Source: Patescibacteria group bacterium UBA2196
Lineage (GTDB): Bacteria; Patescibacteriota; Patescibacteriia; UBA2196
Direction: 5' to 3'
Assembly: GCA_002328025.1 (NCBI GenBank)
Contig: DCVE01000010.1
Coordinates: 1 to 61,583 of the forward strand
DNA: 61,583 bases
The notes beneath the pieces were generated by a model that saw nothing but the letters and a program-made list of their open reading frames with translations, was not told the DNA's origin and did not search any database. Each line of letters starts with the position of its first letter. Position 1 is the stretch's first letter. Of this stretch, positions 5,387 to 10,949 are shown piece after piece. A program made the position numbers and the translations under genes.

Positions 5387-5420
5387 CAATACTCTATTCA
5401 ACTCTATATCTTATAACCCA

Positions 5421-5453
5421 AAAACCGCCCCAGGCTTGCCCAGGAGCGGTTTT
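5421..5453. terminator. bidirectional GC-rich hairpin terminator
   Basis: AAAACCGCCCCAGG..CCCAGGAGCGGTTTT; A-run before and T-run after, so it can terminate both convergent units. Confidence 0.55.
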
Positions 5454-5590
5454 AAGTTTAGAGACAATTTTATTCCTCTATTGAGCTACGGACCGATTCA
5501 TGGCGCACGCAGAGCCACACTGGCACTGTCCAGACGAACAACTGCCACCACAGGCAACTTTTGCTCCGCAACCACCCCTTTTCTTTCACA
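5421..5590 (-). ncRNA. candidate orphan structured small RNA (class not recognised)
   Basis: Extended -10 TGCTACAAT at 5594..5602 (minus), about 165 nt visibly G+C-rich sequence with several local hairpins, ends in the 5421..5453 terminator; no SD-led ORF. Confidence 0.3.
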
Positions 5591-5593
5591 GCC

Positions 5594-5602
5594 ATTGTAG
5601 CA
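5594..5602 (-). promoter_or_regulatory. extended -10 promoter element TGCTACAAT
   Basis: Same TGnTAnAAT form as other promoters in this window (e.g. TGCTATAAT at 46481..46489). Confidence 0.35.
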
Positions 5603-5695
5603 CACTTAAAACTAAAATCATTATTTTATAGCATAAAAAAACCGACAAGTGTTGAAAACCCCGCCGGTATATTCTTGAATTATGTCCTCCCATAT

Positions 5696-6952
5696 TTAAG
5701 CGTTAATTTCTAAAAGAGAAGGCTGAATTTTTTTTAGAAACTCCCTGGGACAGAGGCTATCCGGTTTCACCCCCGCGTAATATGGACACGCTCCAGCACA
5801 AACCGGAAGAAACTGACACTCTCGGCATTTTTCCGATAGCCCATCAAAATAGGCGTCCGAATTTTTGCCAACCAGCCCATCCCTCACATGCCCAGTGGCA
5901 CATTCTATCTGACCCAAGAGTGATTCACAATCATATAGGTTACCCAATGGGTCTATTATAAAACTCCACCGCCGGCGTTTGTAGCACACCGGCCCGAAAC
6001 TATATATCTCGGGTATCCCCTTGATACTTTTTTTCTTCATAAACTCAAAAAAATCAAGAAAAATTTCTGCTATCCTAGGGTCATAGGATGGCATTTCCTC
6101 ACCCTCCTTTGCTAGGGAGGCATTAACAACCGCCAACCGTATTACAAACTGTTTTTTAGTTGTCAGCCCAACCTCCTTTAAAAACATCAGGAGAGCCTTT
6201 GTATCCTCCGGGTCTTTAATATTAATGTGTACCCGGATTGTAACTTGTTCAGGGACACAGCCGACATCATTCATACCCAGCAAGTTACTAATAATTTTTA
6301 TAAACGTCGGCCCGCCCCCTTTGGTGACCCTTACCTGGTCATGTATTTCTTTCGTCCCCTCCAGTGTTACCTGCAGATGCTTCCAGTGAAAGAGACTGAG
6401 AAACCTTGCCTTAGTCGGAGTCAAGAGTTGACCGTTACTGGTCATCTCAACTTCCAACCTGACACGGTGTTTATTACAGATCTCTTGCACCATTGGCAAG
6501 AGTTTTTTAATAACTCTCCAACCCAACATGGGTTCTCCGCCAATAAACTCCAACGAGACAACCTCAAAACTATTCTGCTTCAAGCACTCATCCAGTGCTT
6601 TGCAAAACAGGTCAATGACTTGGTCGGACATCGCTTTGCCACATTTGACATCCCCCGGCTCATAACAATAAGGGCAACGATTATTGCACCTCATTGTTGG
6701 AGCCAACAAAACTATTAAACACTTTTCATTGTTAGCTCTTTTTTTTATCTGAGCCAAAGCAGTATTTTTTTCCTCTCCGCCCGCATCTTCTACCACAAAC
6801 CCATCCCCGGCCAATTCTGTGAGAAGATCTGGTCTGACGGCATCCGCAGAACCGCTGAAGTCTACTTCTCCCGACTCAGGCTGAACTATGACGCCGGTCA
6901 GGAGATTGCAAACGCAATCTCCACTCAACACATTATATCTTGACCACTGCAT
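5696..6952 (-). CDS. radical SAM / SPASM-domain enzyme (peptide-maturase-like)
   Basis: CX3CX2C cluster CNNRCPYC, GGE-type motif FIGGEPML, C-terminal Cys cluster CRECQFLPVCAGACPY; N-terminal about 85-aa extension starting SRYNVL..NLLTG as in peptide-modifying SPASM enzymes; start placed at ATG 6952 behind GGGAGGTGG. Confidence 0.85.
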   Translation of the reverse strand: MQWSRYNVLSGDCVCNLLTGVIVQPESGEVDFSGSADAVRPDLLTELAGDGFVVEDAGGEEKNTALAQIKKRANNEKCLIVLLAPTMRCNNRCPYCYEPGDVKCGKAMSDQVIDLFCKALDECLKQNSFEVVSLEFIGGEPMLGWRVIKKLLPMVQEICNKHRVRLEVEMTSNGQLLTPTKARFLSLFHWKHLQVTLEGTKEIHDQVRVTKGGGPTFIKIISNLLGMNDVGCVPEQVTIRVHINIKDPEDTKALLMFLKEVGLTTKKQFVIRLAVVNASLAKEGEEMPSYDPRIAEIFLDFFEFMKKKSIKGIPEIYSFGPVCYKRRRWSFIIDPLGNLYDCESLLGQIECATGHVRDGLVGKNSDAYFDGLSEKCRECQFLPVCAGACPYYAGVKPDSLCPREFLKKIQPSLLEINA

Positions 6953-7002
6953 ACCACCTCCCAATATTTTTTCTTGTCAATATATTTAAAAAAAACTTTA
7001 TC

Positions 7003-7038
7003 AAAAAAAGATGGGGAAAGTTTTTTAACACTTTCCCC
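7003..7038 (-). terminator. intrinsic terminator/attenuator between micro-ORF and radical SAM gene
   Basis: Minus strand GGGGAAAG-loop-CTTTCCCC followed by T7. Confidence 0.6.
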
Positions 7039-7061
7039 TTCCGAGTTCGTCACTTTCTAGA

Positions 7062-7112
7062 CTAGTGACGATTCGGACACTTGTCACAACCTGCTACTTT
7101 TTTTTTCGTCAA
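7062..7112 (-). CDS. candidate 16-aa micro-ORF MTKKKVAGCDKCPNRH (possible precursor or leader peptide)
   Basis: Strong SD GGAAGGGAGGTG; TTG start 9 nt after GGAGG; two Cys codons; stop sits inside a 7-bp hairpin (7048..7070), then a terminator; directly upstream of the rSAM/SPASM gene. Confidence 0.3.
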   Translation of the reverse strand: MTKKKVAGCDKCPNRH

Positions 7113-7166
7113 TCCGCATCACCTCCCTTCCTTTTTAGATTATTTATCTAATCACATAAATTTAAT

Positions 7167-8801
7167 TTAGTCAAACTTTTCTAGCTCAACCAAATTAAGA
7201 CCGTTTTCATCTAATTCAAAAACTCTTTCTCCCAATTCTTGGATAAAAGCTCGGTCATGTGTTACTGCTATGGTTGCTCCAGGAAATTCTCTCAAAGCCT
7301 CGCGTAAAACAGGTGCAGACAAAGGTGATAAATTACGTGTTGGCTCATCCAAAACCAAAATATTCTTTCCAGAAAACGTCAACATCAATAAAATTAATTT
7401 TGCTTTCTGTCCGCCACTTAATTCAGAAACCTTTTGCAGCATTTCATCAGGAGTGAATTTCATTCTCCCCATCATTTTCCTAGCCTCAGTTTGACTTGTC
7501 TTTTCATCTGTTAAATATTCAACGGCCATTTTGCTTGGATCAGTTAATATCTCATTATAGTCTTGTGGAAAATAGGCTGGTTCTAGTCCTTTTTCTCGCA
7601 TATTTTTCAATATTTCTTTCAACAGTGTGGTTTTACCAGAACCATTTTTACCAATTATAATATCAATTCCTGGGCCATTTTTTGTATAGTCTATTTTTTT
7701 TGCACATAGTATTTTTTTATCACCCTCCAAACCAATCTCTAGCTCTGGCAAATGCAAATCAACCACTATCTTGCCTTGCGGAAATACAGCTGTTTCTGGA
7801 AATTCAAATTTTATTCCTTCTTCAACATCTGGTCTATCTGTCAATTTTGCGTCTAATATTTTTTCCTCTCTCCTAGCTAGACCAGACTCTTTTTTAGCCA
7901 TCGTTCTTCGCATGGTAGCATCTTTTATGTTTTCAGCCTGACCATGCACACCAGCCTTTATGTGTCTCAGTATTTTTAAACCTTCTTTCTTTTTTCTACG
8001 CTCTAACATTGCCCGTAATTCTTGCCTTTCAGTCGCCACGTTTCTTCCCTCAACGTATGTACGGTAGCCCACGTTGGCCACAGTACTTTGAGCTACTGAT
8101 TTTCTTTTCTGTTGCTCTAAGTGTATTATTCTGTCAGCGGTGTTAGCCAACAGATATTCATCATGCGAAATAAATATTACGCCAACGTTAGTATTTCTTA
8201 TAAAATCTTCCATCCATTCTATTGTTTCCAAATCTAAATTGTTAGTCGGCTCATCCAAAACCAAAAAGTTTGGCTCCTGCCACAACAGCTTGGCTATCTG
8301 CAATTTAACTTTTTCGCCACCAGATAGCTTATCAATAGTCAGTTCATTATCTATAATTTTCGGATCAAGGCCCACCTCTGTCATAACTGCTTGTATTTTT
8401 GATATATCATTATATCTTTCATAATCTATTTGTCCTTTCGGTTCATCTTTTATAAAAAAATCAACCACACTACAACTTGACCATTCTTCTGACAAAGCCT
8501 GTGGCAGATAGCCAATCTTACTGTCTCCTCGTTCCACAGCGCCAGACACACTAAAACCTTCTGGTAATTTTTCTCCAGCTATAATTTTTGCTAGCGTTGA
8601 TTTACCGTTTCCCTCTTCGCCAATAATAGCTATCTTGTCACCGGATTTAAAGTTAAATTTAATATCTTTTATTAATTCTCTTCCGCCCGGAGCTTCTATT
8701 GAATCAACCTCTGCTTTAATAATTTGCCCAACGTTTTGCTCTTGTTTTTCAAAAACAAAGGGTTTTTCAGTATTAATTATTCTGGTTGATTTTCGCAGCA
8801 T
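7167..8801 (-). CDS. ABC-F family ATPase (two ABC domains, no TM domain)
   Basis: Walker A GEEGNGKST and GKNGSGKTT, signatures LSGGEKVK and LSGGQKAK, charged inter-domain linker. Confidence 0.85.
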   Translation of the reverse strand: MLRKSTRIINTEKPFVFEKQEQNVGQIIKAEVDSIEAPGGRELIKDIKFNFKSGDKIAIIGEEGNGKSTLAKIIAGEKLPEGFSVSGAVERGDSKIGYLPQALSEEWSSCSVVDFFIKDEPKGQIDYERYNDISKIQAVMTEVGLDPKIIDNELTIDKLSGGEKVKLQIAKLLWQEPNFLVLDEPTNNLDLETIEWMEDFIRNTNVGVIFISHDEYLLANTADRIIHLEQQKRKSVAQSTVANVGYRTYVEGRNVATERQELRAMLERRKKKEGLKILRHIKAGVHGQAENIKDATMRRTMAKKESGLARREEKILDAKLTDRPDVEEGIKFEFPETAVFPQGKIVVDLHLPELEIGLEGDKKILCAKKIDYTKNGPGIDIIIGKNGSGKTTLLKEILKNMREKGLEPAYFPQDYNEILTDPSKMAVEYLTDEKTSQTEARKMMGRMKFTPDEMLQKVSELSGGQKAKLILLMLTFSGKNILVLDEPTRNLSPLSAPVLREALREFPGATIAVTHDRAFIQELGERVFELDENGLNLVELEKFD

Positions 8802-9222: not shown

Positions 9223-9295
9223 TGGGCAGTATAGGACTCGAACCTATGACATCTTCGATGTAAACGAAGCGCTCTACCAACTGAGCTAACTGCCC
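9223..9295 (-). tRNA. tRNA-Val(TAC)
   Basis: Cloverleaf; anticodon loop TTTACAT; no CCA. Confidence 0.9.
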
Positions 9296-10140
9296 TAACT
9301 TAATTTCAAATCAGATTTAAGAATCTTTTCTACTTCCTTTAATATAATTTTATCTTCTTCTAAATATTTTTTATTTTTTATTAAATTATAAAATTCCCGC
9401 TGACCAAATTCAGAATATTTAATCATAACTCCAATAGATTTACTAAAACACAAAGCCGCTTTTTTATCCATATATTTTAACGACAACCTCGCGTGACTTA
9501 ATAAATTTAAAATTCTAGAAGTCGGTACCCAATAATTCAATAGTTCCGGAAATTTAATTGGACGGCCACAATAAATAAAGATTTCCTTTTCACCACCTAT
9601 TATCTTTTTTAAATATCTTCTATTACCATCAACAATCATTAGCTTACCATCAAAATCATAATAAGCAATAATTAAATAATCATCTCTTTGGAAGGTTTTA
9701 CCAGAATGCAACACAGTTTCCTTCCTTTCTTTTTCCAAAATATCTTTATTATTTTTATTAAATAAAAATTCTCTAACTTTTTTTCCACTTGGAAAATTAT
9801 CACTTAATTTAAATAAATTTTTAAAATCATTTTTTGCTCCCATATACAGATCGTCTACTAAAACTTTTTCTTTAGACCACTTGATATTCTGTGAAGTTAA
9901 TCTAATTGTTAAATTTTTTAATTTCAGGCCAAAACAGACTGCATCAAAAAAATTCCAAAAATCCTTAACCGGCGCGAATGTTTTATTTTTTAATAAATTT
10001 TTTGTTTCTTTATCTAATTTATTCCAAATTTTATGTTCTCTAATATTTGGAAAAATTTTTCTAAATTCGTGTTGAATAAACTCAATAGCTATCTGAACCC
10101 TGATTGGTTCTAATAAATGTTTATAATTAGCATTTTTCAT
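9295..10140 (-). CDS. hypothetical protein with possible ParB/Srx-like DGxxR motif
   Basis: 281-aa ORF; segment LMIVDGNRRYLKKI resembles the ParB/sulfiredoxin-fold DGxHR motif; otherwise unrecognised. Confidence 0.45.
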   Translation of the reverse strand: MKNANYKHLLEPIRVQIAIEFIQHEFRKIFPNIREHKIWNKLDKETKNLLKNKTFAPVKDFWNFFDAVCFGLKLKNLTIRLTSQNIKWSKEKVLVDDLYMGAKNDFKNLFKLSDNFPSGKKVREFLFNKNNKDILEKERKETVLHSGKTFQRDDYLIIAYYDFDGKLMIVDGNRRYLKKIIGGEKEIFIYCGRPIKFPELLNYWVPTSRILNLLSHARLSLKYMDKKAALCFSKSIGVMIKYSEFGQREFYNLIKNKKYLEEDKIILKEVEKILKSDLKLS

Positions 10141-10177
10141 AAAATTTAATACCTAGCTAACTGCCCATGAACAGTTA

Positions 10178-10852
10178 TTAATTATTTTTCAATTCTCTAA
10201 TTTTTTCTTGCCACCAAACATGCACAGCCTCGCGATGTTTTTTAGAACCAGCTTTTCTTAAGTATTCAATTCTTTCTAACAATATTTTTCTAAATATTTT
10301 GTACAGTTTTTCATCAGCTAATATTTTTAAACTTAAACCTAAATCATAGCTTTCTCTTTTTATTAAAAATTCTATTTCTCGATAACGATTAATAGATAAA
10401 TCAAAATCTAAGGAAATAATTTGGGTCTTATTTTTAACAATCTTTTCAGTTAAAACTTTTATTTTATTTTCTCTAGTCTTTTCCACAAAGATAAAAATAT
10501 TTTTATCAACTTTTATTTTCTCAATTATTTTATTAGCAAAAAGAATATTTTCTAAGGTTGATAAAGAACTGTTTTCCAATTTATATTGCCAACCTTTGGT
10601 ATATTTTTTGACAAAATCTCTTTGAGCAAACCAAAAAAATAATTTTTTCATTTCCGCAGCCTCAGTTCTTTTGTAAGGCTTAAAAACATCTGTCTTGCCG
10701 CCACAAAAAATTATGACTGGTTTGTTTTCTTTCTTGTCCAAACAAATTTGGTAGACACAATTAAACACCAAACCCAAATATCTCCTATAAGGCTCATCTT
10801 TTAAAATATCTTTAGGAATACCATAGCCGGGCACAATAAATATATTTTTCAT
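10178..10852 (-). CDS. DUF218 / YdcF-like protein
   Basis: IFIVPGYG..PVIIFCGGKT pattern; start moved to the internal ATG at 10852 because the longer ORF overlaps tRNA-Leu. Confidence 0.5.
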   Translation of the reverse strand: MKNIFIVPGYGIPKDILKDEPYRRYLGLVFNCVYQICLDKKENKPVIIFCGGKTDVFKPYKRTEAAEMKKLFFWFAQRDFVKKYTKGWQYKLENSSLSTLENILFANKIIEKIKVDKNIFIFVEKTRENKIKVLTEKIVKNKTQIISLDFDLSINRYREIEFLIKRESYDLGLSLKILADEKLYKIFRKILLERIEYLRKAGSKKHREAVHVWWQEKIRELKNN

Positions 10853-10864
10853 AAAAATTATCTT

Positions 10865-10949
10865 TGCGGACGAGAGGAATTGAACCTCCACGGCCTTGCG
10901 GCCACCAGCACCTCAAGCTGGCCTGTCTACCAGGTTTCAGCACGTCCGC
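10865..10949 (-). tRNA. tRNA-Leu(GAG)
   Basis: Long variable arm; anticodon loop TTGAGGT; no CCA. Confidence 0.9.

Follow-up and report, generated by a model that had tools for sequence, protein, structure and literature searches.

Our analysis of a 61,583-nucleotide (nt) stretch from Patescibacteria group bacterium UBA2196 (GenBank assembly GCA_002328025.1, contig DCVE01000010.1, positions 1 to 61,583; hereafter the window) revealed a short minus-strand segment (7131..5634) that looks like an acquired two-gene cassette, composed of a cysteine-containing micro-open reading frame (micro-ORF) of 16 codons and the gene for a radical SAM/SPASM enzyme of 418 amino acids (aa). On the evidence of its motifs and family matches, the enzyme is a peptide-maturase-type protein similar to CteB and PapB that forms an isolated lineage. 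The micro-ORF, for its part, is probably maintained as a translatable unit. We propose, tentatively and with confidence a little short of even, that the enzyme acts on the micro-ORF peptide as its own substrate, which would make the pair an unusually small system for a peptide made by the ribosome and modified after translation (RiPP).

The locus opens with a gene for an ABC-F ATPase (8801..7167; this and all features below lie on the minus strand), which a 214-nt spacer separates from the enzyme gene. Within the spacer, a Shine–Dalgarno (SD) sequence, GGAAGGGAGGTG (7131..7120), places GGAGG 9 nt 5' of a TTG start codon (7112..7110), and the 16 codons run from there to a TAG stop (7064..7062), the whole micro-ORF (7112..7062) reading TTG ACG AAA AAA AAA GTA GCA GGT TGT GAC AAG TGT CCG AAT CGT CAC TAG. 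Its product, MTKKKVAGCDKCPNRH, is the candidate precursor peptide, and it cannot be longer, given an in-frame TGA three codons 5' of the TTG. The stop codon lies inside a hairpin formed by CGTCACT (7070..7064) and AGTGACG (7054..7048). An intrinsic terminator follows (7038..7003), with a 9-bp stem, GGGGAAAGT/ACTTTCCCC (7038..7013), an 8-nt loop, and then ATC and seven T residues. The remaining 50 nt ahead of the enzyme gene (7002..6953) are strongly conserved and contain a second SD sequence, GGGAGGTG (6962..6955); the enzyme gene itself extends from its ATG at 6952 to its stop at 5696, and a terminator 3' of it (CCGGCG...GTCGG followed by T7, 5667..5634) forms the right end of the cassette. 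A sequence-only reading of this DNA, made by a model, had listed the strong SD with the TTG-started Cys micro-ORF, the hairpin, the terminator, and the SD and ATG of the 418-aa enzyme. These features are real, with only small coordinate shifts; the terminator stem had been given as 8 bp followed by T7. The locus is identical across 7752 nt in an independent assembly (SRR5323276; L018). A third motif of the same kind, GGGAGGA directly 3' of the enzyme stop codon (5690..5684), has no ATG, GTG, or TTG within 3–12 nt and is not kept in the sister species described next.

Scans of genome and metagenome contigs, together with a word-indexed protein search, found an orthologous locus in only one other species, represented by contigs L001–L009 and L014, whose enzyme orthologue (P0002) is 70% identical. 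The gene order there is ABC-F, spacer, enzyme, an extracytoplasmic function (ECF) sigma factor (175 aa), a 254-aa membrane protein, a 79-aa protein, a 147-aa protein, and a VWA protein. Flanking genes of the two species differ by a synonymous divergence (dS) of 0.8–1.7, so that neutral sites are near saturation and spacer sequence that can still be aligned is probably under selection. In L001 the spacer reads AGGGAGGA-acac-GTG AAG ATT CGG AAA AGG GTC GTA GCG CGT GAC AAG TGT CCC GCG CGA TAC TGA, encoding MKIRKRVVARDKCPARY from a GTG that lies 5 nt behind the SD AGGGAGGA. Both species thus keep the SD, the start (TTG or GTG), the frame (across one 3-nt indel), and the position of the stop relative to a conserved block, even though the stop codons, TAG and TGA, are two changes apart. 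The amino acid replacements include K/R twice, A/V, G/A, and H/Y, and the Val, Pro, and Arg codons differ synonymously. What emerges is a conserved C-terminal motif, D-K-C-P-x-R-[H/Y], with a single invariant Cys. On conservation, which the sequence-only reading had made the question to ask of orthologous loci, the ORF is probably maintained as a translatable unit, but not both of its Cys residues: only the second is kept, the first being Arg in the sister species. The ten sister contigs carry one single-nucleotide polymorphism in the 260-nt spacer, ATT/ATC at codon 3, and it is synonymous. In a neutral simulation with 20 differences in 51 nt, about 4% of descendants retained start, open frame, and stop; with retention of the SD (about 8%) and the 3-nt indel included, the joint probability comes to roughly 1e-3, a rough estimate. 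At the core of the motif lies a 13-nt block, GTGACAAGTGTCC (7087..7075), that is identical in the two species and encodes (x)DKCP. An alternative ORF, MRIDEKKSSRL, whose ATG stands directly 3' of the micro-ORF SD, is absent from L001 and was rejected, and a scan of the 61.5-kb window for other small Cys-rich ORFs or DKCP motifs found none that was convincing.

The composition of the locus groups the micro-ORF with the enzyme. SD sequences are scarce in this genome: an SD core occurs in the 22 nt upstream of 3 of the 46 ORFs of at least 150 aa, close to the background rate of 3.7%, and of the 39 GGAGG motifs in the window only 4 are followed by an ORF of 60 aa or more. GGGAGG nevertheless stands at working distance before both the micro-ORF and the enzyme gene, in both species. 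The G+C content at third codon positions (GC3) of the enzyme gene is 0.47 in both species and the highest in the window, where the other 45 long ORFs average 0.30 (standard deviation 0.05, maximum 0.40), giving the enzyme a z of 3.3. The G+C enrichment of the block, from which the sequence-only reading had suggested horizontal acquisition, is real but modest overall (0.43–0.45 against 0.35–0.39 in the flanks); foreign composition and SD usage together support the suggestion. Homology to a relative lacking the enzyme (L016) resumes just downstream of the enzyme terminator, which sets the right end of the cassette. Given an SD-poor genome and the enzyme's GC3, micro-ORF and enzyme gene appear to form a single foreign unit. 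The ABC-F gene, with a GC3 of 0.28 and no SD, has a native look, as do the SD-less genes of a sigma-factor module discussed below, and it was rejected as a cassette member.

These data bear directly on the possibility that the micro-ORF is unrelated to the enzyme, being instead a small gene or 3'-untranslated element that belongs to the ABC-F transcript, or a stretch of conserved nucleotides open by chance in both species. We regard this as unlikely. It would fit the lack of a terminator between the ABC-F gene and the micro-ORF, the absence of third-position bias among the substitutions, the host's rare use of SD sequences, and the finding that ABC-F, micro-ORF, and enzyme are all missing together at the corresponding place in L016. 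It fits less well with an SD, start, frame, and stop that are all kept at near-saturating divergence, and with the SD use and G+C content that place the micro-ORF with the enzyme and not with the ABC-F gene. A further point against it is the 13-nt block, which occurs only once in the window and whose RNA structure is not conserved: a hairpin loop holds it in L001, but here it is unpaired.

What kind of enzyme is encoded beside the micro-ORF? It has the radical SAM motif C89-N-N-R-C93-P-Y-C96 (CX3CX2C) and matches PF04055 with 40.4 bits (cutoff 29.5), which confirms its placement in the radical SAM superfamily. The SPASM-type Cys cluster noted in the sequence-only reading is complete, with seven Cys residues (C323, G337-x4-C342, C376-x2-C379-x5-C385-x3-C389, and C401) that, like those of the radical SAM motif, are invariant in an alignment of 11 homologues. 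The C-terminal domain scores 42.5 bits against TIGR04085 (cutoff 27), as expected of the SPASM subfamily, and Pfam scans of the whole protein and of the C-terminal domain reported no SPASM family. Among NCBIfam models the best matches are maturases of Cys-containing RiPPs: TIGR04463 (162 bits, cutoff 525), the geopeptide maturase TIGR04280 (141 bits, cutoff 400), and CefB, NF038107 (139 bits, cutoff 600), followed by FlmE/OhkG (119 bits), Clo7bot, TIGR04334 (112 bits, cutoff 600), and PapB, NF047865 (100 bits, cutoff 340). Every curated-family score lies well below its cutoff, which places the enzyme outside each equivalog; by these scores it is related to the families of Cys-peptide maturases and a member of none. 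Clustering with the anaerobic sulfatase-maturating enzyme (anSME) or with cofactor maturases, which would have spoken against a peptide substrate, was not observed: the anSME model TIGR03942 reaches only 75.9 bits (cutoff 349.45), and mycofactocin and PQQ maturase models are absent from the enzyme's 25 best NCBIfam matches. By profile comparison, then, the enzyme is neither an anSME nor a cofactor maturase.

Structural comparison points the same way. CteB (5WGG) is the best match among solved structures by sequence (E = 6e-16), and a fold search with an AlphaFold2 model of the enzyme (pLDDT 78, pTM 0.80) again placed CteB first, in an alignment that spans the whole protein and takes in the N-terminal domain (E = 3e-15, TM 0.63), with anSME second and ChlB, TigE, SkfB, and PqqE (rank 18) among the later matches. 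In an exhaustive HMMER search of 1.84 billion representative proteins, none outside the enzyme's own cluster exceeded 36% identity, and the nearest representatives are unassigned members of the CefB/TIGR04463/geopeptide/Clo7bot group. A literature search on geopeptide, TIGR04463, TIGR04280, and NF038107 found no paper. Between the two species the enzyme has a ratio of non-synonymous to synonymous divergence (dN/dS) of 0.125, indicating that it kept a function in both.

The radical SAM core is preceded by an N-terminal domain of about 85 aa, an extension of a kind that, as the sequence-only reading noted, often serves peptide recognition in such enzymes. The domain exists, and in the AlphaFold2 model it consists of short strands followed by helices at residues 41–47 and 61–73 (pLDDT 48–82), but Pfam and NCBIfam scans of residues 1–83 gave no match to hidden Markov models of RiPP recognition elements (RREs) or PqqD. 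The fold of an RRE is a PqqD-like winged helix in which three strands precede three helices. Because the fold match to the RRE-bearing CteB covers the full length and the NCBIfam model of CefB aligns from residue 1 of the enzyme, homology to an RRE is suggested, and an RRE-like N-terminal domain is plausible as judged from the model.

Short peptides with a late Cys are common beside enzymes of this group. Seven such peptides adjoin distant homologues: MSKKKNAKRVVVKGKKKGSEPMPCQANLY at L020, where the enzyme is geopeptide-maturase-like (about 240 bits, below the cutoff); MIKKTCAKKIVVKGKKKGVEPMPCNACTY at L021 and MQKKNGKVVIKGKKKQTEPAQCEKFMGPAY at L022, likewise beside geopeptide-maturase-like enzymes; MKKKLVKPLNKRKYSNRLMLSNCPSNKDECKAAQGCFC at L024, beside a TIGR04463-like enzyme; two Cys-containing peptides of 54 and 31 aa at L010; and one of 41 aa at L011, the enzymes of the last two loci being 29% identical to ours. 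All seven are 29–54 aa long with Cys in the C-terminal part, and four have a Lys-rich or basic N-terminus. An M-x-K-K start, which the micro-ORF pair shares, is common to MSKKKNAKRVVVKGKKKGSEPMPCQANLY, MIKKTCAKKIVVKGKKKGVEPMPCNACTY, MQKKNGKVVIKGKKKQTEPAQCEKFMGPAY, and MKKKLVKPLNKRKYSNRLMLSNCPSNKDECKAAQGCFC, the first three of which also resemble the micro-ORF pair in having a (K/R)VV element, a Cys late in the sequence, and an aromatic residue at the end. The peptides of L020 (3967..4056), L021 (3969..4058), and L022 (3171..3263) are 29–30 aa long, lie directly 3' of the enzyme gene, and follow the consensus M-x-KK...VV(V/I)KGKKK..EP..C....Y*; a divergent gene with an MshEN domain stands on the other side of the enzyme in each of these loci. 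Two of the peptides, those of L020 and L021, were scanned against NCBIfam and gave no match.

In conjunction with these observations, we propose the following model. The micro-ORF, which we infer to be translated, would supply a peptide whose Lys/Arg-Val N-terminal half (MTKKKVAG in the window, MKIRKRVVA in the sister species) serves as a minimal recognition segment for the N-terminal domain of the enzyme. The invariant Cys of D-K-C-P-x-R-[H/Y] would then be cross-linked to a neighbouring residue, giving a product with one thioether that is 2 Da lighter; the acceptor may be the Asp two residues upstream of the Cys or may lie in the C-terminal P-x-R-[H/Y]. Placed between the two genes, the terminator would keep the ratio of peptide to enzyme transcript high. 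As is usual for thioether systems, a Cys-containing candidate precursor gene lies beside the maturase gene, with one Cys conserved.

Several points weigh against a substrate relation between the two genes. A leader of the usual length, a protease, and an exporter are all lacking, with at most 8–9 residues before the core; the adjoining genes encode no transporter, protease, or exporter. To our knowledge a peptide of 16–17 aa is shorter than any radical SAM RiPP precursor, and none of the seven peptides beside homologues is that short. PqqA, for comparison, has about 23 aa. The likeness between the micro-ORF pair and the Lys-rich peptides lies in low-complexity sequence, where statistics give no guidance, and falls short of demonstrated homology, and the N-terminal domain lacks the RRE or PqqD match mentioned above. 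In an SD-poor host, moreover, an SD does not guarantee translation. The substitutions in the micro-ORF fall 5/7/8 on the three codon positions and hence show no third-position excess, half of the identical residues fall in the one identical 13-nt block, which is perhaps conserved for another reason, and the locus is known from two species only, which keeps the statistics thin. Finally, because the first terminator after the ABC-F stop codon comes only behind the micro-ORF, the micro-ORF may be co-transcribed with the ABC-F gene and not with the enzyme.

The order of elements in the spacer raises the alternative that the micro-ORF is a regulatory leader (an upstream ORF), with a ribosome near its last codons modulating the terminator and read-through into the enzyme gene, whose substrate would then be encoded elsewhere. 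An SD, a short ORF, a terminator, and a gene form the classical attenuator order, here kept in both species; most of the conservation falls on the final codons (DKCPxR[H/Y]), a pattern also seen in arrest peptides; and in L001 the stop codon lies 7 nt from the terminator stem. The RNA itself argues against such a role. Both folds show the terminator, with no shared alternative (antiterminator) pairing in either species, which is not the behaviour of an attenuator. L001 has a terminator at the equivalent place, with a stem, AGGGAAAGC/GCTTTCCCT, that differs in sequence; the distance from stop to terminator is 23 nt in the window and 7 nt in L001, and the hairpins between are not homologous. The stop-codon hairpin of the sequence-only reading exists, forming 8 base pairs in the minimum free energy fold together with a second, outer stem of 5 bp, but its position is not conserved in L001, where a different hairpin encloses the DKCP codons, and the 76-nt stretch that holds it folds no better than shuffled sequence (z = -1.3). 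Searches of Rfam, at gathering thresholds and at E <= 10, returned only tRNAs and chance matches, with no leader, riboswitch, or small RNA in either spacer. Only 2 positions separate the species in the enzyme gene's 5' region, between GATAAAG and GGGAGGTG. A promoter scan found nothing above threshold there, but the near invariance of the region makes it a probable promoter or operator, suggesting that the enzyme gene has its own control. An attenuation role therefore strikes us as improbable.

A third alternative concerns the region just downstream. In L001 the enzyme gene lies directly upstream of an operon for the ECF sigma factor, the 254-aa membrane protein, and the 79-aa protein, and it is conceivable that the Cys-rich tail of this last, exported protein is or was the enzyme's substrate, leaving the enzyme in the window a recent orphan and the micro-ORF unrelated. 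The window has lost most of this operon through a deletion of about 1.58 kb, at an AAAGnnAAG microhomology (junction near 5578/5577), that removed both the sigma and the 254-aa gene along with the initial two thirds of the gene for the 79-aa protein. The sigma promoter TGTGCTACAAT (extended -10; 5604..5594), which drives the sigma gene in L001, is now fused to a G+C-rich stretch, one frame of which holds the last 32 codons of the Cys-rich gene, ...GGCGAKVACGGSCSSGQCQCGSACAMNRSVAQ* (5577..5478, without a start codon; 5604..5478 with the promoter). The same sequence forms the C-terminus of the 79-aa protein, MFKTWYVGGIALLVMAFLVAGAFGLSFHKNSVNAQEKAPVLTNTKASCGCGAKAACGGSCSAGQCQCGSACAMNRPVTQ, in L001. 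The remnant keeps its terminator, and the feature as a whole spans 5604..5419, outside the cassette; for the Cys-rich tail itself the sequence is CGCGAKAACGGSCSAGQCQCGSAC..., or SCGCGAKAACGGSCSAGQCQCGSACAMNRPVTQ as a peptide. This competing Cys-rich candidate had been omitted from the sequence-only reading and is explained by the deletion.

Such a substrate would agree with the tendency of the nearest curated families and of several remote homologues to act on, or adjoin, Cys-rich peptides, and the remnant is so little diverged from L001 (7 synonymous and 4 non-synonymous changes) that the deletion could be recent. Yet two contigs that lack the enzyme, L016 and L017, also have the intact triad of sigma factor, 254-aa protein, and Cys-rich protein present in L001; both keep the Cys pattern, and the 254-aa protein of L016 is 94% identical to its L001 counterpart. 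The triad genes, unlike the enzyme gene, lack SD sequences and have native features. The 79-aa protein has a hydrophobic, signal- or anchor-like start with an A-x-A-type site (VNA|Q) that, read from its residues, suggests export and not a cytoplasmic leader. In the window, as the independent assembly agrees, the enzyme is intact while the Cys-rich frame has no start codon, which is only weak evidence against this alternative if the deletion is indeed recent. Overall we see a small chance that the Cys-rich tail is the true substrate.

Two technical explanations of the Cys-rich frame were rejected. An alternative genetic code (4/25, with TGA as a sense codon) is contradicted by ORFs that are intact under table 11 and by TGA ending 3 of the 47 ORFs of at least 150 aa. 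An assembly error at the AAAAGGGG run, where one base fewer would give MAVKEKGGCGAK..., is contradicted by the identical independent assembly, and the ATG of MAVKEKGGCGAK falls in the -10 element of the sigma promoter, which is also present in L001 and L016. The triad itself (L001 7411..9062; L016 6025..7723; L017 6627..8240) comprises the ECF sigma factor, a multi-pass membrane protein of 240–254 aa, and a protein of 79–95 aa with a signal- or anchor-like start. Both non-sigma proteins end in Cys-rich tails of the CGC type (WCGCNRCFSGNAFCGL... and SCGCGAKAACGGSC...), neither matched a family model, and the module may serve metal or redox sensing at the envelope. Proteins of L016 and L001 are 92–95% identical, the Cys-rich protein 72%. 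The region from an 80-aa gene beside MazG to the sigma promoter (L016 483..5860; L001 3725..7330) is a variable locus, with seven unrelated genes in L016 (CYTH, dCMP deaminase, HD, methyltransferase, GreA, and others) and ABC-F, micro-ORF, and enzyme in L001 and the window.

Returning to the proposal that the micro-ORF peptide is the enzyme's substrate, a further step would be to consider the 16–17-residue peptide as both complete substrate and final product, intracellular and singly cross-linked, with no need of leader, protease, or exporter. It would be the work of a stand-alone radical SAM/SPASM enzyme, acquired horizontally by an SD-poor bacterium whose genome appears small, and no shorter radical SAM RiPP precursor would be known. 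We give this stronger version little credence. If true, such a micropeptide would bind a cofactor, a metal, or the ribosome and would not be a secreted antibiotic, and a cationic, ribosome-directed peptide could explain the conserved adjacency of the ABC-F gene.

In line with the sequence-only reading, no transporter or protease gene adjoins the enzyme gene; its neighbours in the window encode an ABC-F ATPase without a membrane domain, a 147-aa membrane protein that has no family match, and a VWA/SdrD surface protein. The adjacency of ABC-F to the cationic micro-ORF is kept in both species. Among NCBIfam models, the ABC-F protein fits 'ribosomal protection-like ABC-F' best (282 bits, below the cutoff of 380), with EttA and Uup behind it. 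Its nearest relatives outside the two species are about 44–45% identical, the named sources being Candidatus Dojkabacteria, Bacilli, and Mycoplasmatota. The 61.5 kb contain thirteen dispersed tRNA genes, and TAA ends 34 of the 47 ORFs of at least 150 aa. Together with the SD scarcity, these features are consistent with a small-genome lineage, though no proof of one. A stretch of low G+C content at 9400..10800 (0.24–0.27 against about 0.36 elsewhere), with ORFs at 10140..9295 and 10891..10178, adjoins the genes for tRNA-Val and tRNA-Ala and may be a second compositional island.

What would follow if the enzyme acts on the micro-ORF peptide? The lower size limit of recognition by RRE-type radical SAM maturases would fall to 8–9 leader residues, the candidate could rank as the shortest known substrate of such enzymes, and a two-gene system would be at hand that is small enough for peptide engineering. 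RiPP mining, which usually skips ORFs under about 20–30 codons, would be missing a class of substrates. If the enzyme does not modify the peptide, what remains is an ordinary orphan maturase of the SPASM kind, next to a small ORF that is conserved. Independently of the substrate question, a foreign SD common to a micro-ORF and its neighbour in an SD-poor genome marks a single acquired unit and could serve as a heuristic in mining.

Among known systems, short precursors of about 23–30 aa occur with PqqA/PqqE and MftA/MftC. These are modified near the C-terminus, and their product is intracellular and needs no exporter, which matches the absence of a transporter here. PqqE is, however, only a distant fold match, the present locus has no separate gene like those for PqqD or MftB, and the peptide motifs are unrelated. 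The architecture of radical SAM and SPASM domains is also that of anSME (4K36–4K39), the second-best fold match, whose alignments start at its residues 6–8 and at residues 82–86 of our enzyme, leaving the N-terminal approximately 80 residues uncovered; our enzyme thus has an extra domain of about 85 aa, and no sulfatase gene is adjacent. TIGR04463, TIGR04280, CefB, and Clo7bot match the enzyme over nearly its full length, although all are uncharacterised and all scores are below cutoff, and the geopeptide-maturase-like homologues adjoin the Lys-rich peptides of 29–30 aa with a late Cys.

NxxcB is known for cross-links that join Cys to an Asn upstream of it, and CteA is a precursor of normal length with a leader. 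PapB, the freyrasin maturase (NF047865), makes Cys–Asp thioethers and tolerates 0–6 intervening residues (PMC9413430). Its Cys-to-Asp chemistry provides precedent for linking a Cys/Asp pair like the one in D-K-C. The family match is limited to 100 bits over residues 85–390 (cutoff 340), and PapA has a leader and six C-x3-D motifs in which Cys lies upstream of Asp, whereas the micro-ORF has one conserved Cys with Asp upstream of it. The closest parallel is CteB with CteA (thermocellin, Clostridium thermocellum; 5WGG, 5WHY), which pairs an enzyme having radical SAM and SPASM domains and two auxiliary clusters with a Cys-containing peptide, albeit at a structure-based identity of only 16% and with a candidate peptide of 16 residues on our side. 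By analogy, the architecture of the micro-ORF–enzyme locus resembles that of the sacti- and ranthipeptide systems represented by CteB/CteA and PapB/PapA.

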